Counted from the first letter of the stretch, positions 9,890 to 46,025 are shown. The stretch: DNA of 64,000 nt from Candidatus Latescibacterota bacterium (GCA_965206595.1 OZ242214.1:6656001-6720000); one strand, 5' to 3'. The notes: generated from the letters alone by a model not told the origin. Numbers and translations: made by a program.

Positions 9890-9937
9890 AACGGAAGCCG
9901 CCCCGGATACCTTCTCCTCCGGGACCGCTTCCGTTTT
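9888..9937. terminator. Bidirectional intrinsic terminator-like hairpin
   Basis: AAAACGGAAGC...GCTTCCGTTTT inverted repeat with inner CCCGGA/TCCGGG, between convergent genes. Confidence 0.6.
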
Positions 9938-10013
9938 GGCCGCTGTCTCCGACAGCGCAGACCCCATTCTTCCCGCCGGGGCTTCCCCCGGTCTCCCGAC
10001 TCCCCGCGGAATG

Positions 10014-11141
10014 CTAGTCGAGACCCTGCTGCATGTGATAGATCTTGAGCTTGAGCGCCGGCGACCTCCCCTTCCACCCCTCGAGCAACTCCTCGGCCTC
10101 CGGTTCCGCTCGCCTGTCTAGCCGGGTCTTCAGCTCGAGCAGCATCCCGGCCATTTTCACCAGTCGCTCCTCGCTCGCCGTGGTCGCCAGGCGCTCGAGA
10201 TCTCTTAGCAACTCGCTGCCGAACGTCGCCCCGGTGTTGGCGATCGCCGCGGTGAGGAACGAAGCATGCCGGCGGGCAAAGGCGTCGTCGCGGGCGCAGC
10301 GTCCGACAAGATGGCGCACCAGCTCTGCCGACGGCTCTTCCAGCATGGCCGTCTCCACCATCCTGGCCAGTCGATGCCACCTTCGCAGCATTTCGGTCGC
10401 CTCTTTGCCTGCCCGGGGATCGAAGGTTGGCAAGCCCCGTTTTTCGACGAAATGCTCGAAGATCTCAACTTGGGGCAGGCAGGCGACCAAGGCGAGAATC
10501 GCCTCTTCGCTGGCCGATCCTACCCATTCGACGGCCAGCTCCGCTATCGTCACAGCCAACGAGCCCGGTGCCGTCCTCAGCTTGTCCAGCAGGATGGTTT
10601 GGACATCCCGGACGCAGCCGGCAAGCACGGCCGAAACCAGGGCGGCTGCCGTCTCCCTGCTGATCGGCAGTCCCAGTGCCGCTTCGCGGGCAATTCCGGG
10701 GACGCGGTGGAGGAGAAACTCCCTCGCCCCGGTCCTGCCGCGCAGGGCCCAGACGAGCGCGCGCCCCACTTCCGGATCGGTTTCGTTCCGGATCCACGCG
10801 GTCAGCCGTTCCGCCCCCGACCGGACGGCCAGCCAGCCGCGGTGAAAACCGAGCAATTCAGCCGCGGCCAACCGGCGCGGATCGGATGCGTCCTCAACGA
10901 TCCCGCCCAGGAAGTCGGCCCCTTCCCTGCTGGGGACGAGGGCACGCAACTGCGCCATCGCATCCGCTCGCTCCCCGGCGACTTCGCTGCATGCCGCATT
11001 CAGCAGATCCTCCAGATCTGGGCCCGACTCCGGGGCTTCGGGTTCCTCAGGCGCCGGGGGTTCCGCTTTCTCCTGTCCGGCGACGTCCGGTTGATTCTCG
11101 TCGTCTTCGGCGAATTGCAGATGTCGAATATCCAGAATCAT
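10014..11141 (-). CDS. Hypothetical alpha-helical (HEAT-repeat-like) protein
   Basis: 375 aa with an acidic disordered N-terminus and helical repeats (RLAAAELLG, ETDPEVGRALVWAL). Confidence 0.6.
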   Translation of the reverse strand: MILDIRHLQFAEDDENQPDVAGQEKAEPPAPEEPEAPESGPDLEDLLNAACSEVAGERADAMAQLRALVPSREGADFLGGIVEDASDPRRLAAAELLGFHRGWLAVRSGAERLTAWIRNETDPEVGRALVWALRGRTGAREFLLHRVPGIAREAALGLPISRETAAALVSAVLAGCVRDVQTILLDKLRTAPGSLAVTIAELAVEWVGSASEEAILALVACLPQVEIFEHFVEKRGLPTFDPRAGKEATEMLRRWHRLARMVETAMLEEPSAELVRHLVGRCARDDAFARRHASFLTAAIANTGATFGSELLRDLERLATTASEERLVKMAGMLLELKTRLDRRAEPEAEELLEGWKGRSPALKLKIYHMQQGLD

Positions 11142-11459
11142 GACCGGGTCTCTCAGTTGTATTGTCCAGGTAATTCAGCTTTCGAACGAGTTGGGGATGA
11201 TTGCTCACCGGAACCAACGGCGTGGTGGGCACGTCCTGTTGCGTCCCGGCGCGGCAACCCGCAAGACGGGGGCCTTGCAGGCATGACGTCACCTTGCGCG
11301 GCGAGCGAAATGCCGAGGCACCGCTACAGGGGAGGAGAGTCTGTGGAGAAGGGGGAGGGAAAATCCGGCGCCCTTGGAGATAGGGCGCGGTCGGCGGCGC
11401 TCGAAGCGGCGCCTGCCATCGGACAAATCCAAAATTTATAAGATGTTACAAGATATCGG

Positions 11460-11489
11460 AATATAGCACCGGCAATCGGGAACGGGCAA
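11460..11489 (-). promoter_or_regulatory. Putative sigma70 promoter with extended -10
   Basis: Minus strand TTGCCC-N18-TATATT with TGn before the -10, in an AT-rich patch about 320 bp upstream of the HEAT-like gene. Confidence 0.4.
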
Positions 11490-11528
11490 GCGTCCCCGGC
11501 GGGATTTCGATTGTCAGCATCTTCGAAA

Positions 11529-14306
11529 TCATCGCAGACTGGCGTACACCGTCGCGAACGACAGGCCGCCTGTCTCCGATTGCCGCTTTCGGTCCGATCT
11601 TTCGAAGCTTCTTCTGTTGAGGCTGTACCCGAACTGGGTTACCAACCGGTAGCCTCCGTACTCTCCGATGTTGGTCACCTGGGCCGCCAGCACGGTGTTG
11701 CGGAAGTCGCCGGTGAATTCCCCATCTCCCACCTCTTCGTCATCAACGATCAGTTCCTCGAAGAACAGCTGCTCGACCCCCAGCTCGACGTGACTCCTGT
11801 TGAGGAACGGGAATCGCACCGAGACATCGAGCGTGCCGGTCCACTCCCGGCGCTCCTCCCCTCCGAGCGCATACGGGGTATTGTCTCGCAGAAGCTCGCT
11901 TTTGACTCTGGGCCGAATCTGGAGGCTGCCGGCGTCGATCAGGTACCCCGCCTTGTTGATGACACCCAGGAAGCGGGTGCTCTCCTTGTGTCCGCTCTCC
12001 GACGAACCTTGTCTCAGGGTCTGGTACTTGAGCTTGTGAGCGAAGTTTACTCCCAGATTTTCCCGGCGCTCCAAGCCTAGCCAGGCGGTGTTGATCCAAG
12101 TGTCGAGGGCGGCAAGGGGGTCGGCGACCGGTATCAGCGAGCCTGTCGAACCTGGCGCCTGCACCCACTGTACCAGATCGTCCTGGATGTCGTCTTCCGC
12201 TTTCTTGAGCAAGTTGTAGAAACGCAACTTGCCCGCCCCGGCAAAATCCCGCTCAAAGGCAACCATCCCGTAGGTCGTCTGGTTTCTTCGGTCGTCAGAT
12301 ATCAGCTCCTGGCGCGTCTGCCCCGCCTGCAGCCGCAACTCCGGAGACAGGTAACGGCGCAGGTACAGGTTATACCCCTTTAGATTCCGTTTGTAGGGAT
12401 AATCCGGTTCGTTGTCGTTCTCGAAGCGGTCGGTCCAGCCGTTGTTGTTCAGGTCGATTCCGAACAGAAACTCGGGGCGGTCCGAGGCGTAGCGCAGGAA
12501 GGGCTCGTCGTAATCGGGAAAGACGTTTTCCTGCAGTCGATTGCTGTTCTGGTTGAAGTCGGAGACGAAATCGCCGTTCTCGTCCCAACCCGGAAAAATG
12601 GCGTCGTCGGCAAAACCTGCCGAGGAGCGACTCTGGTTCTGCCTTTGGTGCCCCTGCCTCGGGTCCTGGAAAAGCCGCTTTTGATCGGGGAGCCTGTCGT
12701 CGTCGTCATTGTCATCGACGAAATCGTACAGGCTTCGGGTGTCATCCTCGTAGTCGACCCTGCCGATTCCGTCGAGGATATAGGAACTCGTGCTGTAGTC
12801 TTCGTCCATGTAGAAGCCTTCAGCAAGGAAATACCAAGGGTAGTCCGATTTCGACAGGTTCATCATCCAGGCCTGGGCACTCTCGTCCCCTTCGATCCCC
12901 GAGAACGACCGGTGTTTCTGCAACTGGTTGTTGGGATACTGCCTGTACCGATGGTTGACGTCGAATTCGGTGAACAGCCGGAAGCCGAGGATGTCCTTCG
13001 TCTCGAGGGTGAGCCCAAAGATCTGGTTTGCCGTCGGCAGGCCGTAATTGAAGGCGACCTCGCGCCGGTTCGAGCCGTCCTGTATGTTGCCTGCGGCCTG
13101 GGCAACGGTCAGGAAAACCGGCTGCCCTTCGAGGTTGGTCTGCCGGTCGGAGGTGACTTCCACCTTGTAGTCGTTGACCAGAATCAGGCGAAAGCGGACC
13201 GCCCTGATGTTCTTCACGAGATCCCTGTCGCTTATGATCTCCCCCAGTCTGCCGAGCTCGTAACGCAGCAGGATCTGCTCGCTTCCGTCGGCGACCAACA
13301 CTCCTTCCTTCAGCGTCCCCCCCTCCCGGTCGGGCGGAAAGCCGATGCTGTTGCCCGAAAGAACGGTGTCGACACCCCCGATGGTGGTCGCGACCTCGAT
13401 ATCGTCGTAAAGGAGGACCGCTCCGCCCCTTGAATCCCCCGGTGAATCGTCGCTCAGCCTGATGGTTATCGTGTTGACCTGGTTCTGCACCTGGCTCGTC
13501 GACAGCGCCCCTTTCAGCGGGTTGCCCTTGAAGCTTTCCAGGGTACCTCTCGTGCTGTGGGCGTTCACGAAGGTGCCGCCGAGGGTGACGTAGTCGCCGA
13601 TGTTGAACTCCGCCCTGCCCGCCTGCATGTTGACGGCGTTGTTGAGGGCGGCGGGATTCGGGTCGGTCGTGAAGCCGGGAGCGCTTATCCGCGACATCAG
13701 CCCGGTGATCACCAGCCGGTCCGAGGCGAAGTCTACCTTTGTTCCGTTGTAAGCCGCTTTGCGGAAAGTCATCGGCGTCAAGGTCGTTCCGATCTCGTCG
13801 CCGATCGTGACGGCGTAGGAGTACTGTCCCTTCTGGTCCACGGCAATGATAAGGTTGGAAAAGAAGGCGGAGTATTTGTCTTTCCTGAGGATGCGGCTGC
13901 CTTCCGAGGTTCGCGGACGATCTTCGGTCCAGTTGTAGATCAGCCACCCCCTGGTGAGGAAGTTCCCAAAGTTGTCGTAGTGATATTCACCCTGCAGAAG
14001 GGGGGACAGGTAGCGCTTGTAGGAATCGCCGGCGTAGTTGGTGGTTTGCCACGTTCGCCACCGGTACTCGTCGCGGATCTCCTGTGGCAGGTACTGTTTC
14101 CTCAGCATCGGGTCGAGGAGATCCGTGTCGACACCCGGCCCGTACGGTCGAAAAACCACTCCAGTTGGTCCCCGTTCTCCCAGACGGTTGCCGTACTCCG
14201 GCTGCGCTCCTCCCGGTTGCGGCCAACCTGCCAGGGCGGACAGCAGGCAGAGGATCCCGATACTGCTTCCCCGGCGTCCGAAGATGGTCGGTATGAGGTC
14301 GTTCAT
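11529..14306 (-). CDS. Uncharacterised secreted/putative outer-membrane beta-barrel protein, paralogue B (925 aa)
   Basis: Signal peptide, acidic Ca-binding-like loops (DFVDDNDDDD, WDENGDF, IDLNNNGW), amphipathic strands ending FATVYASLR. Clear paralogue of the next ORF. Confidence 0.75.
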   Translation of the reverse strand: MNDLIPTIFGRRGSSIGILCLLSALAGWPQPGGAQPEYGNRLGERGPTGVVFRPYGPGVDTDLLDPMLRKQYLPQEIRDEYRWRTWQTTNYAGDSYKRYLSPLLQGEYHYDNFGNFLTRGWLIYNWTEDRPRTSEGSRILRKDKYSAFFSNLIIAVDQKGQYSYAVTIGDEIGTTLTPMTFRKAAYNGTKVDFASDRLVITGLMSRISAPGFTTDPNPAALNNAVNMQAGRAEFNIGDYVTLGGTFVNAHSTRGTLESFKGNPLKGALSTSQVQNQVNTITIRLSDDSPGDSRGGAVLLYDDIEVATTIGGVDTVLSGNSIGFPPDREGGTLKEGVLVADGSEQILLRYELGRLGEIISDRDLVKNIRAVRFRLILVNDYKVEVTSDRQTNLEGQPVFLTVAQAAGNIQDGSNRREVAFNYGLPTANQIFGLTLETKDILGFRLFTEFDVNHRYRQYPNNQLQKHRSFSGIEGDESAQAWMMNLSKSDYPWYFLAEGFYMDEDYSTSSYILDGIGRVDYEDDTRSLYDFVDDNDDDDRLPDQKRLFQDPRQGHQRQNQSRSSAGFADDAIFPGWDENGDFVSDFNQNSNRLQENVFPDYDEPFLRYASDRPEFLFGIDLNNNGWTDRFENDNEPDYPYKRNLKGYNLYLRRYLSPELRLQAGQTRQELISDDRRNQTTYGMVAFERDFAGAGKLRFYNLLKKAEDDIQDDLVQWVQAPGSTGSLIPVADPLAALDTWINTAWLGLERRENLGVNFAHKLKYQTLRQGSSESGHKESTRFLGVINKAGYLIDAGSLQIRPRVKSELLRDNTPYALGGEERREWTGTLDVSVRFPFLNRSHVELGVEQLFFEELIVDDEEVGDGEFTGDFRNTVLAAQVTNIGEYGGYRLVTQFGYSLNRRSFERSDRKRQSETGGLSFATVYASLR

Positions 14307-14322
14307 GCTCCCAAGCCCCTCA

Positions 14323-17118
14323 TCACTCCAGACCGGCGTAAATGGTCAGGAAAGTGGTGCCCGTGGTTTCGGAGTCCATCCTCTTCACAGTTTCCAATTC
14401 CCGGATCTCGATCGTCTCGATCGCCGCCCGCGTCAGTCTGAATCCGGTCTGCAGCAGCAGCTTGTAGCCCTGGTAGTCGGTGCGCGTCGACCACTGCAGG
14501 GCGAGGTTCGTCTCGTTGAGATCTCCCGTGGGACCGATCGTGTTCTGGTTGAGGAGATCCTGCTCGTCGAGCTCGAAATCGGCTAGATGCATCAGCTCTA
14601 GCCCCAGCTCCAGCTGCGAGTTCCGCAGGATCGGGGTCTTGCCCGTCAGGGAAATCAGGCGCCGCCACTCCTTGCGGTCCTGGTTGCGCTTCAGGAATGC
14701 AGTCTGGCGCAGGAACTCGCTCTTGACCCGCGGCTGCAGGATGAAGACGCCGATCTCGTACGTGTAATCTGCCCGATTGACGATTCCCAAAAAGGCGGAT
14801 TCGCCGTTGAGCTGGCTGCCGTCCAGGGCCCGCGGATCGTCATCCTGCTGCGCATAGGTCTCGAGCTTGAACTTGTTGACGACGTTGAGATTGGAGATGC
14901 GCCGGTAGTCGAATCCCAGCCACAGTGAGTTGACCCAGGTGTTCGGCGCCGGCACGATATCGGGGACGTTGCGCGGCGCTCCGGCGAGCAGGAAGGCCTG
15001 CGGCTCGAAGCGGTCGTCGGGAATTTCGTCCTCGACCCTCTTGAGCATGTTGAAAACCCGCAGGCGCCCCAGCGACGAATAATCCCTGTCGAAACTCACG
15101 AGACCGTAGGTCGTGTTGTTCCTCCGGTTCGACGACAGCAGCTCCTGCCGGGTCTGTCCCACGGTCACCCGCCCGTAGGCGGTGAGATCGACACCCCCGT
15201 AGGCGTTGTAACCGCTGTGGTCCCGCTTGTAGGGGTAGTCGGACTCGTCGTCGTTTTCGAAGCGGTCGATCCAGCCGTTGTTGTTGAGGTCGATGCCGAA
15301 CAGGAATTCCGGACGGTCGACGGTGTACCTGAGGAACGGCTCTTCGTAGTCGGGAAGGCGATTGCTGATCGAACGGTTGTCGTTCTGGTTGAAATCGGAG
15401 ACGAAATCGTTGTTCTCGTCCCAGCCAGGGAAGATCTCGAGGTCGCGCCCGCCCTGGTTAGGCCGCTGCCAGTCCGGGTAGCGGTCCTGGTCGTCGTTGT
15501 CGTCGACGAATTCGTAGAAGGAACTCGAGGGGCGGTCGTAGACCACGTCGCCGAGGATGTTGACGATGTAAGAGCTTGTCGAGTAGTCGCGCTCCATCGA
15601 GAACGCCTCGCCAAGAAAGAACCAGGGAAAAGACTGGTACGAGGCGTTCACCATCCATGCTTCGGAGCTCGAAGAGGCGGTCGAGAAGGTCTTGTTGTCG
15701 TTGAAGCGGGCGGCGTTCGGATACTGCCGAAAGCGGTGGTTGACGTCATACTCGGCGTACACGTCGAGCCCCTTGACGTCGGTGAGCTCGATGGTGAAGC
15801 CGGCGATCTGGTTCGCCGTAGGCAAGCCGTAATCGAATGCCACGCGCTGGCGGTTGGAGCCGTCCTTGACGTTCCCCGAGGCTTGCGCGACATCGAGCAG
15901 GGCAGGATTCTCGCGGTCGAGGGCCGCTATGGTCAAGGGGGCGTTCGGCACGACCGACTGACCGGTCTGCCGGTCGGACCATACTTGGACCCTGAAGTCG
16001 TTGGCCAGTATCAGCTCGAAGGCGACCTCGACGATCTCGCTCGGGTCCGGGCCGATGTAGGCCGGATCGGTGAAGTCGTAGTTGATAATCATGCGCTGAC
16101 GACCATTGGCCGACAGGAATCCTTCTTCGAAGAAACCGCCTTCAATGATCGGCCAACGGGTCGGATCGCTGGTCAGGTCTGCGAGCCGCAAGGTAGTTCT
16201 GGCCCCACTCTGGAAATCTTGGCGGACGACCTTGACGTCGTGGGAGAACAGGGCCGCCCCCGCCTCCCCGTCCTCCGGGGAGTCATCGCCCAGGATGAGG
16301 GCGATCGCCGTCACCGGGGAGCTCCCCTGTCCTTCTGCCAGGGTCCCTTTGAAGGAATTGCCGGTGAAGGCACCGAGGCTCGAGCGCGAGTTGTGGGCGT
16401 TGACGAGGGTGCCTCCGACGGTGACGAAGTCGCCGACCTGAGCCGTCAGGCGGCCCGCGATCAGATTGGTCGAGCTGGTGCGGCGGTCCGGCGCCGTGAC
16501 CGATCCATTGATCGGGCTGTTGGCGCGGGAAAGCAACAGCGTCCCGGTGAACTTGTCGGTCGCCGCATCGAGCTGAATCCCGTTGTAGCGGGGCTTCGAG
16601 AAGGTCAGCGGCGTCAGTGTCGTGCGGATGTCGTCGCCAACGGTGAGGGAATAGAATACCGACCCCTTCGAGTCGGATGCCACGGCGAGGCTGCTGAACC
16701 AGTTGCGGTAGTTGGCATCCTGGTAGATCGAGCTGCCCTGGGGGGTGTTCGCCTCCTGGCGCCAGTCGTAAATCAGCCACCCCCTGGTTACGTAGTTCCC
16801 GTACACGTCGTAGAAATAGTCGCCTTCGAGCGCCGTGTTGACGTAGCGCTGGTAGGGTACCCTGGCGTAGTTCGAATACTCCCAGGACTTCCAGCGGTAC
16901 TCGTTGTAGAGCTCCTGGGGGACGTACCACCTCTTGACCGCCGGGTCGAGGGCGTCGAAGAGAACGCCGGCGCCCCGCGGTTCGAAGGTGACCGTACCTC
17001 CGCGCCGCGTCCCCAGGCGGGCGCCGTAGTCCTGCGCCAGGGCGGTGGTCGCCAGTCCTGCCGCGGTGAGGACGGGGATCAGCAGGCACGCGTACCCCCT
17101 CATGAAAATCCCGGTCAT
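14323..17118 (-). CDS. Uncharacterised secreted/putative outer-membrane beta-barrel protein, paralogue A (931 aa)
   Basis: Shares YGxRLG, TRGWLIYxW, TTLTPxTF, YGLPTANQI, PDYxEPFLRY..DRPEFLFGIDLNNNGW.DRFEND with 11529..14306. Ends FLTIYAGLE. Confidence 0.75.
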   Translation of the reverse strand: MTGIFMRGYACLLIPVLTAAGLATTALAQDYGARLGTRRGGTVTFEPRGAGVLFDALDPAVKRWYVPQELYNEYRWKSWEYSNYARVPYQRYVNTALEGDYFYDVYGNYVTRGWLIYDWRQEANTPQGSSIYQDANYRNWFSSLAVASDSKGSVFYSLTVGDDIRTTLTPLTFSKPRYNGIQLDAATDKFTGTLLLSRANSPINGSVTAPDRRTSSTNLIAGRLTAQVGDFVTVGGTLVNAHNSRSSLGAFTGNSFKGTLAEGQGSSPVTAIALILGDDSPEDGEAGAALFSHDVKVVRQDFQSGARTTLRLADLTSDPTRWPIIEGGFFEEGFLSANGRQRMIINYDFTDPAYIGPDPSEIVEVAFELILANDFRVQVWSDRQTGQSVVPNAPLTIAALDRENPALLDVAQASGNVKDGSNRQRVAFDYGLPTANQIAGFTIELTDVKGLDVYAEYDVNHRFRQYPNAARFNDNKTFSTASSSSEAWMVNASYQSFPWFFLGEAFSMERDYSTSSYIVNILGDVVYDRPSSSFYEFVDDNDDQDRYPDWQRPNQGGRDLEIFPGWDENNDFVSDFNQNDNRSISNRLPDYEEPFLRYTVDRPEFLFGIDLNNNGWIDRFENDDESDYPYKRDHSGYNAYGGVDLTAYGRVTVGQTRQELLSSNRRNNTTYGLVSFDRDYSSLGRLRVFNMLKRVEDEIPDDRFEPQAFLLAGAPRNVPDIVPAPNTWVNSLWLGFDYRRISNLNVVNKFKLETYAQQDDDPRALDGSQLNGESAFLGIVNRADYTYEIGVFILQPRVKSEFLRQTAFLKRNQDRKEWRRLISLTGKTPILRNSQLELGLELMHLADFELDEQDLLNQNTIGPTGDLNETNLALQWSTRTDYQGYKLLLQTGFRLTRAAIETIEIRELETVKRMDSETTGTTFLTIYAGLE

Positions 17119-17154
17119 ATAAGAACTCTCCCTTTTTTCCAGAAGCGGCGCCCG

Positions 17155-19374
17155 TCAGTACGCCACAACTACTATCCCATTCTTTTCTTCGTTCCCGGAG
17201 TCGGCGTCTACGGAGATGCTGTACAGGTAGGATCCCGGTGGCACGGTATTCCCGAAAGCATCGGTTCCGTCCCAGCTTCGCGAATACCTCCCGCTTTTGT
17301 CGGTGCCCGTGTATACCTCGCGCACCAAGCGGCCGGAAAGGTCGTATATCCACGTTGTGACCTCCGCCCTCCCGATCAGGCTCGTCACGTCGTAGTCGAG
17401 GACCGTGGTTTCGTTGAATCCGTCGCCGTTAGGGGTAAATACTTCCGGAGTGGCCCCCGCGTTTATCAGGAGGGCCCCTTTTATCGGAATTTGGACGACG
17501 ATGTTCGCCGCATTGCGCACTACCTTCCCCCCGGATGCGGAGGCGATGTCCGCGGCGTTGCCGCCGCTCAACTCCTGCGGCAGGCCGTCGGGGGCTTCGG
17601 GAAGAGCCCTGCCCGAAAAAGCGGTCGCCGCCCTCAGCACGGGGCAGGTGAACTTCACATTGAGGACGGTCATCTCCCCGTCTTCGATACGGCTGGATTC
17701 CACGGTGGGAAAACCGATGCGGAAGCGCGTCTCTTCGACTTGGTCGACGCTGATATCTCCACGCCGGATCGGAAGGGTGCTGAGGTCGGCGTCCTCGAAG
17801 TTTTCGGCAGAGGTGCTGCCATCCGGCCTCGTATAGGTGATCTCGCCTATGGATACGACACGCACCGGCGTCGAAATCTCGAGAGCGCTGAACCCGAGGT
17901 CGATTCCGGGACGCAGATCGGGGATCACGGTGTAGGAAAACTCCCGAGCGCTGCCCAGGTCGGCTTCCCGGGGACTGATTTCAGCAACGATCTGCTCCGC
18001 AAGAGAGGGGCCGGAAACGTCGATGGAAAGGGATCCGAGACTCCTGGCGGAAAACAGGTCGTCGTTCTCGAAGTCGATCCTCACCTGGAAGTATCGCGCC
18101 GGCCCGGGCGAAACGATCGGGGTTCCACCTTCTCCGTCGGCGATCTGGAGAGCAGTTCCGGCCCCCGCCGGGGAGTACGGCGGCGACCACGTACTCCAGT
18201 TGTCCACGTCGTCGCGCACAAGGCCCTTGACCCCCGAATTGAGGCGGCCGTATTCCCCTTCACTCAAGGCGATGGCGTTGCGCTGATCGAGCGGCAACTC
18301 GCCGTAGAGCCGCAAAGCCGCCCGCGGATCGAGGTCTTCGGCATCGAGCATCTCGACGATCTCTCTCTCCTCGGTGCCCCCGTCGTACTCCCCGGCACCC
18401 GCCCATGGCACCTGCGCGCCGTCAGGGCGGCGACGGTTGAAAACCACCGGGGTGTCGTCGATACCGGTTCGCGTGCGGATCTCGACGCGCGAGCGCAGGG
18501 AATCGCCGATGCTCTCCTCTTCCCAGCGAATCCTGCCCCAGAGAGCAAGGTCCTCGCCGAAATCGAGGATGTTGGTCAAGTACTGTGCCCGGGGCACGAA
18601 ACCGGCCCCGAAAACCTGAAACTCGGCGATTTCGAAATCGACGGTGGTCAGCGATTTGAGCTGGATGTGGCGCACGAGCTGGGGTTCGATGATCAACTCG
18701 ACAACGGGCTTGTCGTTCTGCAGCTCGAGCAGGACCCCGGGTCCGAACACCGGCCGGCCGCTGATCTGGGTTTCGTCGGAGCCGTCGTTGAGAAACAGCT
18801 CGAACGCCCGCAGGAAATCGTCTTCGAACGGAAACGCTTCGGTGGCGTAGGCGGGGTCGGCGTTCCTGGGAAAGAACTTGAACCTGCTGACGCCGAACTG
18901 CGAGCCGAGATCGAACTGCATGACGACCCCCAGGGTGTTCACCTGCCTTCCGGGGGAGTCCTTTCTCTCGAAGGCGGTCTCCCCGTCGTCGTCGATCATC
19001 TGGGGAAGTACGGTGTCGAGATTCTCGAACACGTTCGGCGCGGTAACCGCACCGCCGCGTTGGAGCAGGCCCAGGGCGATATTCTCGGATTCATCGGCCA
19101 GTTCCGGCGAGATCCATCCATCCCTGGTCTCGAAGTCGATGACGCCTCCAGGGGTGTTCCCGAACTCGATCTCCTGAGAGCCTGTGATGTAGACCGGGGT
19201 GATTCCTTCGCCGCCACTACTCCAATCGATGCCGTTCTCCCCACCGAAGACGATGGTGCGCCCATTTGCCGTAGCCGCCGTACAGGCCAGAACCAGAACT
19301 CCTTCGAGAAGCCGTCGAAGAGGTTTGTTTCGCCGGCGCCCCGATTCCCTGCACCCGGTTCGTTCAGAATTCAT
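17155..19374 (-). CDS. Secreted protein with C-terminal FlgD-Ig / type-B T9SS CTD-like domain (739 aa)
   Basis: Signal peptide and discoidin-like N-terminal region. C-terminus FTPNGDGFNE...IYDLSGRLVR...WDGTD..GNTVPPGSYLY. Confidence 0.8.
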   Translation of the reverse strand: MNSERTGCRESGRRRNKPLRRLLEGVLVLACTAATANGRTIVFGGENGIDWSSGGEGITPVYITGSQEIEFGNTPGGVIDFETRDGWISPELADESENIALGLLQRGGAVTAPNVFENLDTVLPQMIDDDGETAFERKDSPGRQVNTLGVVMQFDLGSQFGVSRFKFFPRNADPAYATEAFPFEDDFLRAFELFLNDGSDETQISGRPVFGPGVLLELQNDKPVVELIIEPQLVRHIQLKSLTTVDFEIAEFQVFGAGFVPRAQYLTNILDFGEDLALWGRIRWEEESIGDSLRSRVEIRTRTGIDDTPVVFNRRRPDGAQVPWAGAGEYDGGTEEREIVEMLDAEDLDPRAALRLYGELPLDQRNAIALSEGEYGRLNSGVKGLVRDDVDNWSTWSPPYSPAGAGTALQIADGEGGTPIVSPGPARYFQVRIDFENDDLFSARSLGSLSIDVSGPSLAEQIVAEISPREADLGSAREFSYTVIPDLRPGIDLGFSALEISTPVRVVSIGEITYTRPDGSTSAENFEDADLSTLPIRRGDISVDQVEETRFRIGFPTVESSRIEDGEMTVLNVKFTCPVLRAATAFSGRALPEAPDGLPQELSGGNAADIASASGGKVVRNAANIVVQIPIKGALLINAGATPEVFTPNGDGFNETTVLDYDVTSLIGRAEVTTWIYDLSGRLVREVYTGTDKSGRYSRSWDGTDAFGNTVPPGSYLYSISVDADSGNEEKNGIVVVAY

Positions 19375-19543
19375 AAGAAAGTCGTAATCCTTCCCCCGAT
19401 GGACGGGGAAGTATCAATTCTCCGAATCGCGGTACGTTTCCATAGGAAATCCCACAGCATGGCAGGGAGGCTGCGAGGAGCCGGCAGATTGGAAAATCGC
19501 GGTTCCGCTTCCCGATAGGGAGGCATTCCAAGTCGAGGGCTCC

Positions 19544-22276
19544 TTAATACGCCACGTGGATCAGCCGGTGCGCCGCTGTCGAGGTAGCCGACGCGGAATC
19601 GACAGCGATCTCGATTCTGGCGATGTAGATGCCCGGGGGCACGAGCACTTGGGAATCGTCGTCCCCGAGCCAGGAGATCGCGTAGGAACCTCGCGGATCC
19701 GTCCGCTTTTCCATGGTCTGGCGTACTACGGTGCCGCCGAGGTCGAAAATAGTCAGCCTTACCTCGCGCTCGCTGTTGATGCGAGCGACCGTGAAATGGA
19801 ACGTCATCATATCGTTGATGCCGTCCCCGTTGGGAGTGAGAACCCCCGATCCTGTGGAGAGATTGCTGATTACCTCGTTCCCGGCCAGCGCCAGGACTGC
19901 CGTTGTCTGGCTGTTGACCAGTTCGGTGGCGTCGCCGGCATCGACGCGCTGCCATAAACCGGGCTCCTCAGAGTTCTGCCCGGCCACCTTGAACGAAGTG
20001 CTCGTGGAGAAAATCGTCGGCCTGAAGCGCACTTCGACGAGGTCCGTTCCCTTGGCTACTGGTTCGGGCAATCGAAACCACAACGTGCTGTCAGCGGAGC
20101 CAATCATCACCAGCTCGGCTGCCGAAAAGACCTTTGCTCCGTCCCCGGCGAAGTCTTCATCGCTTCCGACCAGCGCCTCGACCAACTCCATGGTGGTTCC
20201 TCCGGTCGCCTCTATTCTCAACTCGTCGAAGCGCTGCCTGGAACTGGAAAACGAAGGGCGTATGAAGAAGGACAGGTCCAATGGTTTTCCGAGATCCTCT
20301 ACCTGGCTCGGAAACACTTCGCCGACCAGGCGATCGGCCACAGGATCCGAGAAATTCACCGTGATCGAGTGCAGAGACGCCCCCACATCTGCCAGTTCGG
20401 AGAACAAAGTCGCACGGATCTGCATGAACTCCCTGGGGCTCGGAGAGGTGATGTCGGCCCCCTGAAACTGGTACGGAGGACTCCATGCAGACCAGTCTCC
20501 TCCGGGTATGAAGAAGTTTTTTACCTCCCCCTTCTTCGACTTGGGCAGGCGGTCGTATTTCGATTTTGCCGCCTCGGGATCGTCGACCGGCTCCACGGGA
20601 TTACCATTAGAATCGAAATAGAGGAAATTCTCGATCAGCTCGTTCCCGGAACGTGTCTGGATTTCGATGCGGGTCCCCTCGGGAAAGTCGGCTTCCCAGG
20701 AAATCGTGCTGAGGTTCTTGCTGCCGCCGAGCTCGATGAGATCGGAAACCATCACCAGTTCCGGAACGAACCCTTCCCCGTACAACAGCATTTCCGCGAA
20801 AGCCGTGAACGTTCCCAGTACCCCACCGCCTCCCGGATTTGATTTGAGCGTGCCGATCGTGCCTTTGAGATAGCGCACAAGGGTAGGCTCGATATCGTAC
20901 TGGCGGAATTTTTGCGCCCCCTCACCAGCGCAGTGATCGCACGAATACCCGAAATGGGATCCCGTGCCTCCCACTCCCAGCCCGGTGACCTCACCCGCCG
21001 CCCGCGTCCACTTGATGCTTCCATCCGGAGCGCGGGAACCGTCCGATACATCCACCGCCATCTCGTCGATCGCATCCTTGCCGTCCATCAGGAACTGCAT
21101 GGTGTCGACCCAGTAGAGAGCGCCAAGATCCACGACGAAGTCGCTCGGACCGAAGTGCCTGAACAAGGTAACGGTATGCGCCGTCGAATGCCTGCCGTCG
21201 ACTGCGACCGCGGTGATGTCCTTCCACCCCAGGCCCGGACTCGGAAACTCAATGTTGACGCTGCCGCCCCGTTCCGCCATTCTGAGCGCCAAGTTGTCTC
21301 CCGAGGTCCAGACCTCGATCTCGGCGACCCGCGGCCGCTCTCTTCTGTAATACCTGATCGAGCCCCGGCGCTCCTCCCTGATGTTTTCGTACTCGCTCCG
21401 GGAGATCAACGTCTCGCGTCCCGATGGCTCGCGACGGTAGTGATCGATGGCGCCTCGCTCCTCGGGGGATATGGCCCCGTACTTTTCCTCGGCGGTCTCC
21501 CCGTCGGACAACACCTCGGAAGACCTTTCGAGATCTGTGTCAGTGGCGAATATCTGAATCCTGTCTATGGCGTCGCCGCCGAAACTGTCGCTGGCGGGAA
21601 TCAGGGATTCCGGAGGCCGGAATGTGTTGTTCGCCTCGGGATCCGGAAAAAACTCGAACACCCTCTGACTTTTGTTCGGCTTGTCCGTCCTGCCCAGCTC
21701 CCAGTACTTCGGAATGTCCGGGGCTCCGTTCAGCCAGAGCTCGGGAGCTCCTCTCGGAGGAGCGTGGCGCCACGCGAGTACCTTGAACTGCAGGAACGGA
21801 TCTCCCTCTTCTTCCTCGGCGAAGCGCACCACGATCCTGTTGGCAACCACTATGCGCCCGAGGTTTACTTCCGCCCACCATTCGGACAAAGGGCTGTCCG
21901 TGTCGGGTCCCCAGGTCGTTGCAGGGTTGCCGTCGATCAGGAACCGCGCCTCGCTGTCATTGGAACCCACAATGACTCCTCCCGGTCCATCGTCGAAAGC
22001 TGCTCCCTTGGCTTCGTTTTCGAACTCCGTGGCGTCGAAAGCTGCGTTGATGCCTTTGCGCATGAAACGAGGTCCGACGGAGCCATCGCCGGTTATTTCC
22101 GCGGTGCCGCCCGCGACCGCCCACTGCTGCCAGTGGGAGCTGCGGTCAACGACAATCTCGTTTCCCTGTATGCTGTATCCGAGCTGAGCCGACAGCGGCG
22201 ACGAACCTGGGGCAATAACGGCCAAGGCAGCCGCGAACGAAATCGGATGAAAGATCTGCACCTTGGAATTTATCAT
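19544..22276 (-). CDS. Secreted protein with C-terminal FlgD-Ig / type-B T9SS CTD-like domain
   Basis: Likely start MINSKV (22276; ORF extends to TTG 22363). C-terminus LTPNGDGIND...IFDLGG...VPPGIYIA. Shares GxGFVP, I(R/Q)TR(T/S)G, WSxWSPPY, SPxP with the 739-aa protein. Confidence 0.8.
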   Translation of the reverse strand: MINSKVQIFHPISFAAALAVIAPGSSPLSAQLGYSIQGNEIVVDRSSHWQQWAVAGGTAEITGDGSVGPRFMRKGINAAFDATEFENEAKGAAFDDGPGGVIVGSNDSEARFLIDGNPATTWGPDTDSPLSEWWAEVNLGRIVVANRIVVRFAEEEEGDPFLQFKVLAWRHAPPRGAPELWLNGAPDIPKYWELGRTDKPNKSQRVFEFFPDPEANNTFRPPESLIPASDSFGGDAIDRIQIFATDTDLERSSEVLSDGETAEEKYGAISPEERGAIDHYRREPSGRETLISRSEYENIREERRGSIRYYRRERPRVAEIEVWTSGDNLALRMAERGGSVNIEFPSPGLGWKDITAVAVDGRHSTAHTVTLFRHFGPSDFVVDLGALYWVDTMQFLMDGKDAIDEMAVDVSDGSRAPDGSIKWTRAAGEVTGLGVGGTGSHFGYSCDHCAGEGAQKFRQYDIEPTLVRYLKGTIGTLKSNPGGGGVLGTFTAFAEMLLYGEGFVPELVMVSDLIELGGSKNLSTISWEADFPEGTRIEIQTRSGNELIENFLYFDSNGNPVEPVDDPEAAKSKYDRLPKSKKGEVKNFFIPGGDWSAWSPPYQFQGADITSPSPREFMQIRATLFSELADVGASLHSITVNFSDPVADRLVGEVFPSQVEDLGKPLDLSFFIRPSFSSSRQRFDELRIEATGGTTMELVEALVGSDEDFAGDGAKVFSAAELVMIGSADSTLWFRLPEPVAKGTDLVEVRFRPTIFSTSTSFKVAGQNSEEPGLWQRVDAGDATELVNSQTTAVLALAGNEVISNLSTGSGVLTPNGDGINDMMTFHFTVARINSEREVRLTIFDLGGTVVRQTMEKRTDPRGSYAISWLGDDDSQVLVPPGIYIARIEIAVDSASATSTAAHRLIHVAY

Positions 22277-22369
22277 AAGCCCTGCGATTGTTTCTCGACG
22301 CGGTAACGGTGTGAACTCTGGACTGATTCTCTTTAAAAGGATCTTCTTCAACTTGGACGTCAATGCAAC

Positions 22370-22412
22370 AGAAAGAGAACAGGGGGGGCTCCTGTTGTTT
22401 GAACCCCCCCTG
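22370..22412 (-). terminator. Intrinsic terminator/attenuator after the HEPPG gene
   Basis: Minus strand CAGGGGGGGTTC-loop-GAGCCCCCCCTG followed by TTCTCTTTCT. Confidence 0.6.
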
Positions 22413-22445
22413 CCTGTTTACTACGCCCTTTCCTCGTCTACTTCA

Positions 22446-23396
22446 TTACTCCTCGATGAGGAAATCGGACTTGATTCGGCCCCAAGTGTCGGTCTCGACA
22501 GCCGTCGGCCACAGCGAGTCGTCGATTTCGAGCAACTCGAAGTCGGCGAGCAGACTGCTGTTGCGCCAAGTGTCGTGCAACGGCGGAAAATCATACGAAG
22601 CCGAGTAACGCTCACCCTCGACGGGAACGTCGAAATCCTTGAACATGTAGGCAATGCCGAGGATGCTACCCACTTCGAGATCGACGATAGTGCTGCGGGA
22701 CTCGCCATCTTCACCGCGATACAGGTTCTCCCACGGGGTCACCATCATCTCGTAGGTGCGGGTTCCGGGTTCGTAGAGCTCGGCATTGAGCGTCCAACCC
22801 ACCTCGAGGTACTGGGGGGCCAGGATCTCGCGACCGGTGGTCAGGAAGTTGTCGTTGCCGACAAAACCGCGACCGAGCATGAAGATGTAGTAGCCGTCGA
22901 GGGGCGGGGTGTAGTAGCGGTAGTTCTGGCCCGAAACGAAGATCAAGTCGATCTGGTCGTCGTGCTCTTCTGCGTGCCAGTCACTGTTCCACAAGTCGCC
23001 GCCGCTGTGGTCGGCATCGACGATGAAATCGAAACCGTCATCCCAATCGACGCCGGAGGGGTCTTCCTTATCCCTCTTGAAGTAGTCGTCAAACACGTCG
23101 GCCGTTACATAGAGGCGGTTGGTCTCTTCGTTCCAGCCGAGGATGTGCTTGGTGTTGAAATCGTCGAGTCTGACTTCGGTGTCGTTGCCGACCACCGTCT
23201 CTTCGAAATCATTCTCGCGAGTCACCCAGTACGACTCGGGAACCATGTCCCAATCGCTGAGGTCGCCATCGATGGTCGGAATGGCGTGGGTCGGGAACGC
23301 GACCGCGAAGTACGTCACGCCCGGGGGCTCGTGCGCCGAGGCGGCGCTGAGGCCCAGGATGAGGCTGAGTGAAAGAATGCCCTTCAAACTTTTCAT
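22446..23396 (-). CDS. Secreted CBM9/DOMON-like protein (HEPPG family) with C-terminal AVExxTWGRIK motif
   Basis: Signal peptide MKSLKG...ASA|HEPPG, motif PTIDGDLSDW, VDADHSGG, tail TAVETDTWGRIKSDF. Confidence 0.75.
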   Translation of the reverse strand: MKSLKGILSLSLILGLSAASAHEPPGVTYFAVAFPTHAIPTIDGDLSDWDMVPESYWVTRENDFEETVVGNDTEVRLDDFNTKHILGWNEETNRLYVTADVFDDYFKRDKEDPSGVDWDDGFDFIVDADHSGGDLWNSDWHAEEHDDQIDLIFVSGQNYRYYTPPLDGYYIFMLGRGFVGNDNFLTTGREILAPQYLEVGWTLNAELYEPGTRTYEMMVTPWENLYRGEDGESRSTIVDLEVGSILGIAYMFKDFDVPVEGERYSASYDFPPLHDTWRNSSLLADFELLEIDDSLWPTAVETDTWGRIKSDFLIEE

Positions 23397-23821
23397 TGCT
23401 TTGGATCTCCTCACGGACTGAAGGGGTTTTGAAAAATTGCAATCGCCACACTCTGTGTCGTTGCAAGTCTGCCGGCAGAATGGGCGCCGACAAGGAATTG
23501 TTCGTCGAGTTGTCGCATTGAACTGCGCCTGCCGCGAATGCGGTACTCATTCAGCTCGGTCCCACTCATAGGCTCATCCGGCAAGTTCTGAGTTCATTCC
23601 TTAATGGCAGTACGGGTTTGTTTATTTGGCAGTAATGGTTGACTATTCAAAATAGTAATGAAACAGTTTTGATAAAAGGTGTTTGGAGTTAGGAATCGTT
23701 GGAAATGTACGCCTTCCCGATGTTCCAAAGCAAGAGGCAAGCACTCGGAGATGAACAATTGAACACTGGTGAACCGTTGCGCCTTCAGGTCTCCTCCGGT
23801 TCGGATGACGGCAATTCTCCG

Positions 23822-25987
23822 TCATTTCCTCTCTTCGAGGAACTGTCGCACCGAGGCCGCCAGTGGGTGCTCCGGCCCGAGCTCAAGACCCTTCAGTGCC
23901 ACCTCGTAGGCACGTCGGTACTGGCCGGTGGCGTAGAGCGCTTTGGCGAGGTTGAAGTAGGCTGTTGAATGAGTAGGGTCGAAATCGAGGAGCCGCTCCC
24001 ACAAGCGGATCGCCTCTCCGACCCGACCGGTGCTGGCGCAGGCGATCGCCAAGTCGTTGTAGTACTCGGGACCGTCGGGAAACAAGGCCACCGCGGCCCT
24101 CAGTAAGGGCAGTGCCCGGTCGTAGGCGCGCAGGTAGCCATGGGCGATTCCCGCGTTTCCATACAGGCGGTGGGCGTAGACATCGGGCAACAAGTCGGAC
24201 AACTGAGGCACCTTCAGGGCCCGGTCGAAGGTGCGCACCGCCTCGTTCCAGTCGGAGGCCCGCATCGCCAGCGACCCGATCCGGGTATTCAGCAGCACGT
24301 CGAACAAGGTACTGGCGCCTGGTTCGGCACCCTCCATGTCGGACGGCAGTAATCCCAGCCGGATGGTGGGACCGGAGTGCTCCATCCCGGCTAACCCCGA
24401 CAGCGGCAGGAAATACCAGTCCATGGGATCGAATGCCGCTGCATCCACCCCTGTACCGGGTGAAAATGTCTGCGGCCACGAAGCGGAAGAGACGAGTTTC
24501 CCGGAATTCGGCGACACCTCGGCATCGGCGCAGAGCGGGTGTCGATACTCCAATAAAACAACATGCGGACTCGCCCCGGTTGCCAGCCTTGCACTTTCCC
24601 AAACCCTAGCCGGGTCAGGTTCGAGAAACAGCGGCGGAAGATGTTCGCGTTTGCGAAGCCAATCGTACGCCGCGATCAGCTTCTCCTCACCATAGCTGCG
24701 AAGAAAATGCGTCTCCCTGACGAGGACTCGGCGCGGTGTCAGCACCTGGATGTTCCCGCACCTGTCGGGGAGGTGCACCAGCCGCCTGCTGGCGGGGGCG
24801 TTGTTCTCCATCCAGGTGACGGCCTGTTCGCGCGTGTCGCTGCCTGACAGCAGAGCCCTGGTGTGCAGCGAGGCGTAGGCCGGCTCCGCGAGCAGGACGG
24901 CGAGAACCGCCGCCATCAGCGTGGGGCTGCGGCGCAACCGGAGCAGGGGCCGAACCATCAGCACCGACATGATCGGAGTCAGCGGCAGCGCGTATCGCAT
25001 GAAAACCGAGCCCGCTGCGGCCAGCAGAATCGCGAAGGCACCCAGTCCTGAGAGCAGAACGACCTCGTCCCTCTTCAGGCTCCCCGGCTTTCTCGCCAGA
25101 GACAGAAGCAGGAGGGCGACCCCCGCCAGGCCAAGGCCGAAACGCAGGGTGTGACGCAAGTGGAAAAAAAAGGGCCGTTCTACGGCCGCATTCGGAAGCA
25201 AATGGTCGCCGCCCATTTGGGCGAAGTCCTTCCAGAAAGCGGCCGAATCCAGCCACACGTACGGAGTCGCAGCACAGAACGACAGCACCGCCGCAGCGCC
25301 GGCGCACCAGATGCCGGGATGGCGCAGAGAAGGGGTCCGCAGCAACGCCGCGGCCGCGACTGGCACCGCGACCAGGGCAGCCGGGTACTTGGTCGCTCCT
25401 GCCAGGCCGGCGAAGAGCCCGGCGACCAGCGCATCGACACAGGTCCCCCGTTGCCGCATCCGCACCGCAAACACCAGGGCCAGGCTGACCCACAGCACCG
25501 CCGGCGTGTCGGTGTTGGCGAGATGGCCGAAGCGCACCGACAGTGGCATCAGCGCCAGGACAAGGGCGGCCAACAGCCCCCCGGCGGAGCCGTACAGGAG
25601 ACGCCCTAGAAAGGCTGTCACCGCCACGGTAGCCGCCGCCATCACGGTGCTGCATGCGCGGGCGAGTGACAACAGATCGCCGCCGTCGACGAAATACCGG
25701 TAGGCGACGAACTGTTCCAGCGGAACGCTTTCCGCCAAGGTGAACTTTGCGAAATAGAGAAGGGATACCAGGTAGAACTGAAGGGTCGGATAGTTGAAGA
25801 AGTGGGGATTGAGATCGCCGCTCCAGAATCCCAGCGGAATCAGGACCAGCGATTCCTCATCGAAGTGCGACCACTCCGGCGCCGGGAGCGGCCAGCGCAG
25901 CCACAGCGAGAGAAGCACCGTCCCCCCCAGCAACCAGGGCCAGTATCTCGCGATGGACAGGGAAGAGTCGGGAGGCTGCGTTCTCAC
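23822..25987 (-). CDS. GT-C (GT39/PMT-like) glycosyltransferase with C-terminal TPR repeats
   Basis: HFDEES, PHFFNYPTL, many TM helices, ATKYPA, MRYALP. TPR motifs such as EYYNDLAIAC and TAYFNLAKALY. Confidence 0.8.
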   Translation of the reverse strand: MRTQPPDSSLSIARYWPWLLGGTVLLSLWLRWPLPAPEWSHFDEESLVLIPLGFWSGDLNPHFFNYPTLQFYLVSLLYFAKFTLAESVPLEQFVAYRYFVDGGDLLSLARACSTVMAAATVAVTAFLGRLLYGSAGGLLAALVLALMPLSVRFGHLANTDTPAVLWVSLALVFAVRMRQRGTCVDALVAGLFAGLAGATKYPAALVAVPVAAAALLRTPSLRHPGIWCAGAAAVLSFCAATPYVWLDSAAFWKDFAQMGGDHLLPNAAVERPFFFHLRHTLRFGLGLAGVALLLLSLARKPGSLKRDEVVLLSGLGAFAILLAAAGSVFMRYALPLTPIMSVLMVRPLLRLRRSPTLMAAVLAVLLAEPAYASLHTRALLSGSDTREQAVTWMENNAPASRRLVHLPDRCGNIQVLTPRRVLVRETHFLRSYGEEKLIAAYDWLRKREHLPPLFLEPDPARVWESARLATGASPHVVLLEYRHPLCADAEVSPNSGKLVSSASWPQTFSPGTGVDAAAFDPMDWYFLPLSGLAGMEHSGPTIRLGLLPSDMEGAEPGASTLFDVLLNTRIGSLAMRASDWNEAVRTFDRALKVPQLSDLLPDVYAHRLYGNAGIAHGYLRAYDRALPLLRAAVALFPDGPEYYNDLAIACASTGRVGEAIRLWERLLDFDPTHSTAYFNLAKALYATGQYRRAYEVALKGLELGPEHPLAASVRQFLEERK

Positions 25988-26035
25988 CCTCCGTAGGTTG
26001 CGCGCGTGCGAGTTGGGTACCGCTGCGACATTGCA

Positions 26036-27799: not shown

Positions 27800-27887
27800 C
27801 CTTCCTCGTTCCTTCTGTTCCCCGTTTGTGATGGCGTTGCGGCAGGGCTGACTGCGGCGGGATTTAAGGATACAGAACCGATTTAAC

Positions 27888-45928: not shown

Positions 45929-46025
45929 GGCTTTGTTCGTCAAGGCCATTCTACAACAGCGATAGGTCGAATTTCCTGAATCGCACCAATATATCTCATC
46001 TTAAAATGATTTTTCATTGCCATAA

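Follow-up and report, generated by a model that had tools for sequence, protein, structure and literature searches.

A 64,000-nucleotide stretch of a Candidatus Latescibacterota genome (GCA_965206595.1 OZ242214.1:6656001-6720000; hereinafter, the window) contains five consecutive genes, here denoted H, B1, B2, A1 and A2, that are part of a genuine multi-gene envelope system, strongly conserved and apparently not described before. These genes can be tentatively interpreted as the core of a seven-gene envelope module that additionally includes a gene for a parvulin-type protein (I) and a gene for a membrane protein with tetratricopeptide repeats (TPR; P), and that would encode a surface substrate-capture complex. 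The module is characteristic of Latescibacterota. It is built around A1 and A2, two paralogous proteins predicted to form giant beta-barrels, which are encoded next to multidomain secreted proteins sharing a C-terminal domain (CTD), B1 and B2, and a secreted protein, H, with a predicted fold of a carbohydrate-binding type. No description of such a module, no work on DUF6785, and no link of either Latescibacteria or FlgD Ig-like domains to type IX secretion was found in the open-access papers of PubMed Central or in bioRxiv.

The association of these genes is highly conserved. Relatives of A1 number more than 1081 in a set of 5.8 billion proteins; among the matches listed, the named ones are all hypothetical proteins and none has a Pfam domain. 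The initial annotation of this stretch had set the locus in a Bacteroidota frame, but the relatives with a named organism come from Candidatus Latescibacteria/Latescibacterota, the label being Gemmatimonadetes or Gemmatimonadota on some records and Gammaproteobacteria on one. The source of the window is therefore most likely a Latescibacterota-like lineage within the FCB group rather than one of the Bacteroidota. A profile of the A family retrieves 969 representative clusters at E≤0.001, the distant ones including proteins labelled Ignavibacteria and Bacteroidota. Among GTDB species genomes, at least 638 of the 668 candidate stretches encode an A relative, and the best 80 loci of these at least 638 matches were compared. 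Our own lists of open reading frames (ORFs) were used without reference to annotation, and each ORF was classified by its best BLASTP match in a set made up of the proteins of the window plus reference proteins of three loci; many of the 80 loci end at contig ends, which lowers the counts. The same gene families recur together in all 80 loci, and the core genes lie on the same strand in all 81 sources, an association far beyond chance. A gene of the B2 type lies directly upstream of an A1-type gene in 70 of the 80 loci, and A2 directly follows A1 in 67, the parvulin gene being located between the two in eight further loci. At least one B protein is encoded in 79 loci, parvulin in 61 (including the eight just mentioned), H in 59 and the TPR protein, with or without a PMT_2 domain, in 55; a DUF6785-like gene is found within 10 kb of the module in 32, and A1, A2, H, parvulin and a B protein are all present in 44. 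The recurrence of the combination of barrels and CTD proteins that the initial annotation had proposed is thereby borne out. Its scheme of two barrels, two CTD proteins and one additional protein describes the window, which holds two A genes, two B genes and H, but the usual module is larger and includes three B paralogs, A1, A2, H, parvulin and the TPR protein. Three B genes are the commonest state (48 of 80), with types of approximately 650 aa (B3), 850 aa with an F5/8 type C domain (B1; 51 loci) and 740 aa (B2); only B1 and B2 are encoded in the window.

In a maximum likelihood tree of 155 A proteins (IQ-TREE in quick mode, LG+G4), a single branch supported at 99% by the Shimodaira-Hasegawa-like approximate likelihood ratio test parts 80 A1-type from 75 A2-type rows, and the A1 and A2 proteins of the window fall accordingly. 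The two halves of the tree mirror each other in the grouping of loci, which indicates that the pair is ancient and co-diversifying; one A2-type row (L058_A2) has a very long branch. About seven module clades can be read from this tree. Divergent modules coexist in the same genome: contig OZ253462.1 carries at least five loci (L007, L024, L046, L065 and L075) from five different module clades, and so does assembly JAJDVZ01 (L003, L020, L051, L057 and L079). Two loci, L050 and L068, contain three A genes in the order A1, B2, A1, A2; in the former, a 1639-aa protein with weak GH42 matches adjoins a DUF6785/DUF6784 gene.

In the window, the order of the genes on one strand is parvulin, PMT_2/TPR protein, H, B1, B2, A1, A2 (Table 1). 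Only short gaps separate the five core genes: 82 nt (H-B1), 169 nt (B1-B2), 36 nt (B2-A1) and 16 nt (A1-A2). Most of what the initial annotation had noticed in the five-gene core holds. The five ORFs were found where it had placed them, each on the minus strand, and a hydrophobic, signal-peptide-like segment is visible by eye at the start of each translation. The two proteins of about 930 aa are full-length paralogs, with 43% identity across 928 columns, and both of the near-invariant blocks quoted for them, DRPEFLFGIDLNNNGW.DRFEND and FPGWDEN.DFVSDFNQN, occur in A1 and in A2. TPNGDG is present in B1 as well as in B2, and the protein named after its HEPPG motif is H, which reads ..SAASA-HEPPG... 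The size of about 910 aa assigned to one of the CTD proteins corresponds to B1 translated from an internal ATG near 22276, which is probably the true start. The neighbors mentioned in that annotation are likewise borne out, with genes for SprA, a double parvulin, DUF6785, BNR, GH32-like and sulfatase proteins in the window. A scan of the region 9500..28500 yielded 6 promoter-like sites (3.4 expected) and 26 terminator-like sites (16.4 expected) and no clear operon boundaries, the consensus used being one that may not suit this phylum. The G+C content of the window is about 64%; it drops to 0.56 in 22001..24000, which includes the H gene and the region upstream of it, and to 0.58 in 46001..48000, within the 3' part of a fn3/cadherin gene.

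Table 1. Genes of the module and other features located in the window
Feature	Position	Strand	Description
sprA	656..6829		TIGR04189 match
A2	11529..14306	minus	925 aa; paralog of A1, second of the A1-A2 pair
A1	14323..17118	minus	931 aa; predicted giant outer-membrane beta-barrel, first of the A1-A2 pair
B2	17155..19374	minus	739 aa; secreted multidomain protein with FlgD-Ig/CHU_C-like CTD ending in ..VAY
B1	19544..22363	minus	939 aa from TTG; N-terminal discoidin (F5/8 type C) domain and CTD
H	22446..23414	minus	322 aa; secreted, predicted CBM9/DOMON fold, His at the predicted mature N-terminus
P	23822..25987	minus	Membrane protein, PMT_2 (GT-C glycosyltransferase type) and C-terminal TPR; directly upstream of H
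I	26036..27916	minus	626 aa; two parvulin-type peptidyl-prolyl isomerase domains (SurA/PrsA-like foldase)
Second PMT_2 + TPR membrane protein	27888..29930	plus	Divergent; PMT_2 39.6 bits and TPR; module membership uncertain
DUF6785 protein	31487..33061	minus	Polytopic membrane protein; PF20581 431.5 bits; candidate inner-membrane partner
Second H paralog	36781..37769	plus	Frameshifted near 36930

Neither A1 nor A2 matches any Pfam or NCBIfam model at E≤0.1, in line with the earlier view that these proteins lie outside characterized families; no family threshold is reached. No PorP_SprF match was detected in A1, A2 or the 28 neighboring ORFs of the window, and no POTRA, usher, secretin or SLH domain in a Pfam scan of A1 and A2. 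The reported lack of TonB-dependent receptor and SusD motifs is likewise confirmed: TonB-dependent receptor, plug and SusD domains have no Pfam or NCBIfam match in A1, A2, B1, B2 and H, and none in the 28 neighbors (E≤0.001 for SusD). An AlphaFold2 model of A1 derived from an alignment of 18 sequences (mean predicted local distance difference test score, pLDDT, 63; predicted TM-score, pTM, 0.57) contains 36 strands, 28 of these of at least 7 residues, which form long hairpins running to the C-terminus, and has no long helix. In a Foldseek search of the PDB, the best match of this model is SlpA of Deinococcus (7zgx_A, E 2e-6), followed by LptD, MtrB, porins, TonB-dependent transporters, SprA and the usher PapC. 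The barrel-like appearance of the paralogs is thus matched by an almost all-strand model and by fold matches to outer-membrane barrels, and A1 and A2 are predicted, with fair confidence, to be very large outer-membrane barrels.

The A barrels may be remote relatives of the SlpA barrel, without its SLH domain and coiled coil. In a sample of 49 diverse A members, 12 match SlpA_C (PF21620) at E≤0.01, the only Pfam family touched; the best of these scores 30.2 bits, so that none of the 49 exceeds the cut-off of 35, and A1 of the window has no such match. Together, the sub-threshold matches of distant members indicate that the A barrels are not wholly without kin. A search of PDB sequences with the A-family profile retrieved nothing meaningful, SlpA included, and, as weak evidence, a search for longer fusions that include A1 was negative. 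The family has an invariant Asp/Asn-rich block at positions ~540-633. Its N-terminal region (residues ~30-140 of A1; 16699..17031 of the window, minus strand) is highly conserved and aromatic-rich, with the consensus ..VTFEPRGPGVLFDALDP..WYVPQELY.., and is modelled with very low confidence; this part of A1 could act as a plug or as a docking element in the periplasm. A complex prediction for A1 (residues 140-931) and the CTD of B2 (residues 630-739), with alignments supplied, returned a score of 0.00, which weighs neither way. DUF6029, the nearest named cluster of an atlas search (at 0.89), was considered as kin of A1 as a lead only and was dropped, with no corroboration from Pfam.

The B proteins are paralogous (B1 and B2: 25% identity over 529 columns, E 9e-28), and those listed share a terminus of the ..V[A/V]Y type or a close variant, one of them ending in ..VF. 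At the C-terminus of B2, Pfam reports overlapping matches to FlgD_ig (40.3 bits) and CHU_C (PF13585; 37.2 bits), both with cut-offs of 27. B1 contains an N-terminal F5_F8_type_C_2 domain that scores 27.8 bits, equal to the cut-off, whereas its CHU_C match (25.9 bits) stays under the cut-off of 27 and its other C-terminal matches are sub-threshold as well. An atlas search with B2 returned only clusters of its own kind, and when a profile of 30 B2 relatives was compared with PDB sequences, the CTD alone gave matches, the best being to FlgD (3osv_A, E 5e-9), with the C-terminus of PorU far behind (E 0.15). A T9SS (type IX secretion system) translocon component is encoded in the window: the SprA ORF matches the Sov/SprA model TIGR04189 at equivalog level (614.9 bits, cut-off 200). 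Judging from sequence, T9SS is the most likely route of the B proteins, because SprA is present and B2 passes the CHU_C model, with the type-B cargo of PorP/SprF barrels as the precedent. A Cys in the signal peptide of B2 in the window had prompted a lipoprotein reading of this protein, which was rejected because the position is not conserved in the 30 relatives.

The H protein of the window has no Pfam or NCBIfam match at E≤0.1, and PF06452 (CBM9) is carried by only one (P0451) of its 120 listed relatives. Nevertheless, the AlphaFold2 model of H (pLDDT 69.8, pTM 0.73) adopts a predicted CBM9-type beta-sandwich fold, with Foldseek matches to the CBM9 entries 7nwn (E 4.9e-9, TMt 0.71), 7nwo (TMt 0.73) and 1i82_A (TMt 0.67), then to a putative carbohydrate-binding protein of Bacteroides, and also to the DOMON-like heme subunits of ethylbenzene dehydrogenase and nitrite oxidoreductase (2ivf_C, 7b04_C). 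The N-terminal motif of the P.IDGDLSEWD type is one that we take to be CBM9-like. All members of a set of 121 sequences have His at positions 28 and 136, the former immediately after A27, with which the signal peptide ends (cleavage site by eye); A27 is conserved in 118 of them. Within a set of 24 H sequences taken from the loci and the window, the His after ..A-x-A is invariant, along with D133, D135 and H136 (DADHSGG), E222, D260, D262 and D291, and the C-terminal tail, TAVE.DSWGRIK, is conserved. A His at the mature N-terminus is a mark of copper histidine-brace proteins, and H28 would be such a first mature residue, the cleavage site being assigned by eye; H is hypothesized to contain a metal site. 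Its fold is that of CBM9/DOMON proteins and of no lytic polysaccharide monooxygenase (LPMO) family. A second H paralog in the window, aligned to the H profile by hhalign across columns 65-317 (probability 100, E 1.2e-48), is divided between two reading frames, one with the signal peptide, ..ASA-HEPPG.. and LDGDLSEWDIV and the other with the remaining 283 aa; it could be a pseudogene or the product of a sequencing error. A further kind of H-like protein (L014:18673-19764, L018:19709-20836 and similar), encoded downstream of parvulin in clade II loci, has a PKD domain at its C-terminus and, with a mature start that reads ..ALERPDTTF.., does not possess the N-terminal His.

Upstream of H, the two remaining genes of the module encode P, which matches PMT_2 (56.9 bits) and TPR families of Pfam and has six hydrophobic segments in a crude hydropathy scan, and I, which matches Rotamase_2 in two stretches (75 bits), Rotamase (53.9) and Rotamase_3 (42.9), all above cut-offs; the NCBIfam equivalog models for SurA, PrsA and EpsD match I only below theirs. 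The protein at the place of P is sometimes TPR-only in other loci (e.g., L020:626-2149), so that the TPR region seems to be the conserved part. The parvulin gene of the window is flanked by two genes for PMT_2 + TPR proteins. Within 20 kb of the module, there are DUF6785, BNR, PhyH, GH32-like and sulfatase genes; the DUF6785 protein has eight hydrophobic segments in the same crude scan. The ORF 33626..35218 was considered as another DUF6785 gene and ruled out, having neither a Pfam match nor a hydrophobic segment.

Across the loci, 200 non-module ORFs of at least 180 aa formed 87 clusters, of which 75 representatives were scanned with Pfam, the 12 shortest or singleton fragments being left out. 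One recurrent neighbor group is a cluster of 32 FG-GAP/ASPIC proteins. Other recurrent neighbors are Amidohydro_2 proteins, PhyH dioxygenases, pentapeptide proteins, enolase-superfamily enzymes, sulfatases, FGE, HpcH aldolases, 2-hydroxyacid dehydrogenases, SBP_bac_5 with a permease, AraC, BNR and GFO/IDH/MocA oxidoreductases. Each of these families is linked to one or a few module clades: Amidohydro_2 and FGE-sulfatase to clade I, enolase-superfamily enzymes, AraC and SBP_bac_5/permease to clade II, HpcH aldolase and 2-hydroxyacid dehydrogenase to clade III, and PhyH to clade VI, with sulfatases found near modules of several clades. The neighbors of the module in the window conform to this pattern. 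The clade-tied neighbors resemble substrate-specific utilization loci, a resemblance that is suggestive only.

From these features, we infer the function and the protein contacts of the module as follows. The proposed product of the module is a complex on the cell surface that would take hold of a substrate (most likely a glycan) and transfer it through the outer membrane, acting like a SusCD-type utilization system although unrelated to it. A1 and A2 would be exported via Sec and fold, as the model predicts, into two different giant beta-barrels that presumably reside in the outer membrane, pair with each other and serve as a pore or a platform; the barrels may anchor, shuttle or import cargo or substrate. 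The dedicated double-parvulin protein, given its gene linkage, could act as the periplasmic chaperone of the barrels or of the B proteins, and this protein and the TPR protein would help assembly. B1 and B2, and B3 in other loci, would carry discoidin-type binding domains, and their FlgD-Ig/CHU_C-like CTD would direct them through T9SS, after which they may stay surface-bound on the barrels, by analogy with type-B cargo on the PorP/SprF barrels of Bacteroidota. H would bind the substrate or act on it via its putative metal site. The products would enter the periplasm and, to judge from the gene neighborhoods, be handled by the clade-specific sulfatases, BNR proteins and sugar-acid enzymes, with the DUF6785 protein or an ABC system as the membrane proteins involved. 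The presence of two modules of carbohydrate-binding type, F5/8 type C in B1-type proteins and the CBM9 fold in H, suggests such a capture function. A more specific version of this proposal, possible but doubtful, is a nutrient-acquisition machine peculiar to Latescibacterota and unrelated to SusCD and TonB-dependent transporters, in which a co-evolving hetero-pair of ~28-30-strand barrels would operate with T9SS-delivered discoidin/Ig proteins and with an H protein that attacks the polymer through an N-terminal-His metal (possibly copper) site, duplication of the entire module having given rise to at least seven clades specialized for different substrates.

Several observations weigh against a substrate-capture complex. 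Binding, location, substrate and transport are all deduced from sequences and models, and the model of A1 falls below a confidence of 50 at residues 22-152 and 538-619, with TM-scores to known barrels of at most 0.25 (TMq 0.24 for SlpA). Pfam recognizes no plug or TonB-box domain in A1 or A2, so that an energized import mechanism is not evident. The routing of the B proteins through T9SS is not established given that the best match of the B2 CTD is FlgD itself; the type-B identity assigned in the initial annotation does not stand either, because TIGR04131 (cut-off 35) is not reached by B2 (24.5 bits) or B1 (18.4 bits) and the FlgD Ig-like domain scores best, and the type-A model TIGR04183 (cut-off 23) gives 13.8 bits for B2. 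Of the co-occurrences expected in that annotation, those with parvulin (61 of 80 loci) and DUF6785 (32 of 80) recur, but sprA is found within 10 kb of the module in none of the 80 loci, so that its closeness in the window is not a conserved feature. The counts themselves come from best-of-list loci that are nearly all from one phylum and hence are not independent. Furthermore, plain synteny among related genomes would look like the pattern of clade-tied neighbors, and the neighbors also include non-catabolic genes for pentapeptide proteins, restriction-modification systems and dynamin-like GTPases.

Other functions of the barrels have to be considered against this background. Partner-in-barrel arrangements are exemplified by MtrA/MtrC in MtrB, LptE in LptD and the passage of pilus subunits through the usher. 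By the same logic, although it appears unlikely, the module could be a protein-in-barrel export or assembly device independent of T9SS, with A1 and A2 as translocons or sheaths for the B proteins and the parvulin as their chaperone. Very large barrels usually house a partner, and LptD, MtrB, SprA and PapC are all among the fold matches of A1; the direct adjacency of B2 and A1 in 70 of the 80 loci, a chaperone-type gene in 61, and the common B terminus, which could be a recognition strand, would all make sense, as would the failure of the B CTD in the curated T9SS models. However, B2 passes the Pfam CHU_C model and SprA is encoded in the window, POTRA, usher and secretin domains are lacking, and there are three B types for two barrels. 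Such a device also leaves the clade-specific enzymes unexplained, even if it does name the item that is assembled. A purely structural role, in which abundant SlpA-like barrels would hold an Ig-rich coat of B proteins as an envelope scaffold or adhesive layer for adhesion or protection rather than uptake, seems quite unlikely. It would be consistent with SlpA_C being the sole family signal (12 of 49), with SlpA at the top of the fold search and with the invariant Asp/Asn-rich block of the A family, considering that SlpA of D. radiodurans is proposed in PMC9388160 to be a membrane scaffold and not a pore, and that its lumen insertions have metal sites held by Asp. Nevertheless, A1 and A2 have no SLH domain, coiled coil or long helix, the module includes domains of a carbohydrate-binding type, and the five divergent modules per genome, with their differing enzyme and regulator neighbors, do not resemble a single structural layer.

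The focus can also be shifted from the barrels to H. The module might be a polymer-attacking station, oxidative or metal-dependent, in which H, a metalloprotein with a histidine-brace-like site built on a CBM9 scaffold, is the catalytic component, and the part played by the barrels and the B proteins is limited to placing H at the surface. The complete conservation of the N-terminal His and of H136 in the DADH motif (121 of 121), the additional invariant Asp and Glu residues, and the occurrence of the DOMON/CBM9 fold in redox subunits (2ivf_C, 7b04_C) are compatible with catalysis, but such a station is improbable. The fold of H matches no LPMO family, and CBM9 modules bind calcium and sugars without catalysis, according to the titles of PDB entries; the cleavage site before H28 was placed by eye, H136 is only a candidate for the second His that, close in space to H28, would complete a brace, and H is absent from 21 of the 80 loci, many of them cut by contig ends. 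Of these readings, the tentative interpretation of the module as a surface substrate-capture complex has the best support.

Two other parts of the window deserve mention. The ORF 51705..56312 (minus strand, 1535 aa) is rich in LDL-receptor class B and NHL repeats; its residues 119-196 match the type-A sorting domain TIGR04183 (29.2 bits, cut-off 23) and also FlgD_ig, at an N-terminal rather than C-terminal position, and a short upstream ORF, 56669..57103, contains an LDL-receptor class B repeat too. The long ORF may represent two joined genes or reflect an error in the gene model. Between the sulfatase gene and the gene for a 1832-aa fn3/cadherin protein, two adjacent, overlapping ORFs (44114..45830, minus strand) match DDE_Tnp_1_6/DDE_Tnp_1 and DUF772 and look like a single insertion sequence transposase split in two.

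Latescibacterota are widespread, uncultured bacteria whose genomes have been read as those of polymer degraders and which, to our knowledge, have no SusCD systems. A conserved, multi-copy envelope module with barrels outside all curated families would be a strong candidate for the uptake of large substrates in this phylum and would reveal a role of T9SS-type C-terminal domains outside Bacteroidota. The A, B and H proteins are three unnamed families for annotation; A1 and A2 offer a clear co-evolving pair for structural study, and H is a predicted CBM9-fold protein with an invariant N-terminal His, the metal binding of which is directly testable on the recombinant protein.

Among the known systems, the polysaccharide utilization loci of the SusC/SusD type share with the module the multiple divergent copies per genome, the combination of barrel genes with surface binding-domain proteins, the AraC regulator in some loci and the clade-specific catabolic enzymes. 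Unlike these loci, the module has no TonB-dependent receptor, plug or SusD domain, and its surface proteins are not lipoproteins, the consensus of the B2 N-terminus having no conserved Cys. In Bacteroidota, type-B CTD cargo is held by a co-encoded PorP/SprF barrel, according to PMC9143113 and PMC12618676. The module resembles this arrangement in that proteins with a TPNGDG-type C-terminal beta-sandwich are encoded beside barrel genes and SprA is encoded in the window, but its barrels, of about 930 aa, are a co-evolving pair with no PorP_SprF match, its CTD remains under the TIGR04131 cut-off, it occurs in Latescibacterota with several modules per genome, and it adds H, parvulin and the TPR protein. 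By sequence, the module is not a member of the type-B CTD/PorP-SprF family, because the barrels are unrelated to PorP/SprF and the CTD fails the curated model.

The closest structural parallel of the A proteins is with the SlpA/OmpM connectors between outer membrane and peptidoglycan (PF21620; PDB 8ae1, 7zgx), which, like the barrels predicted for A1 and A2, are single-chain barrels of comparable size with Asp-rich insertions and include the best fold match. PMC9388160 describes SlpA barrels of 28 or 30 strands, with lumen insertions held by Asp metal sites; the A1 model has 28 strands of at least 7 residues, but its SlpA match combines a significant E value (2e-6) with a low TMq (0.24). In contrast to the SlpA homotrimer, A1 and A2 are a predicted hetero-pair, their sequence matches to the family are all sub-threshold, they have neither an SLH domain nor a coiled coil, and their genes form operons with those of CTD proteins. 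The protein-in-barrel systems (LptDE, MtrAB-C, and SprA with its plug or PorV) are similar in that a gene for a barrel of over 26 strands, in the module a predicted one, adjoins the gene for its possible guest, and they are among the top fold matches; the A family, however, shows no sequence relationship to them, the partners come from other families, and insertion is hypothetical for the module. H resembles CBM9/DOMON proteins in its predicted fold (TMt 0.71-0.73, E ~5e-9) but is secreted as a protein in its own right, is marked by the invariant His at its N-terminus, the DADH motif and the TAVE.DSWGRIK tail, and has no Pfam CBM9 match. Finally, I shares with the parvulin chaperones of the SurA/PrsA type the peptidyl-prolyl isomerase domains, which score above the cut-offs, whereas the equivalog models of these chaperones stay below theirs.

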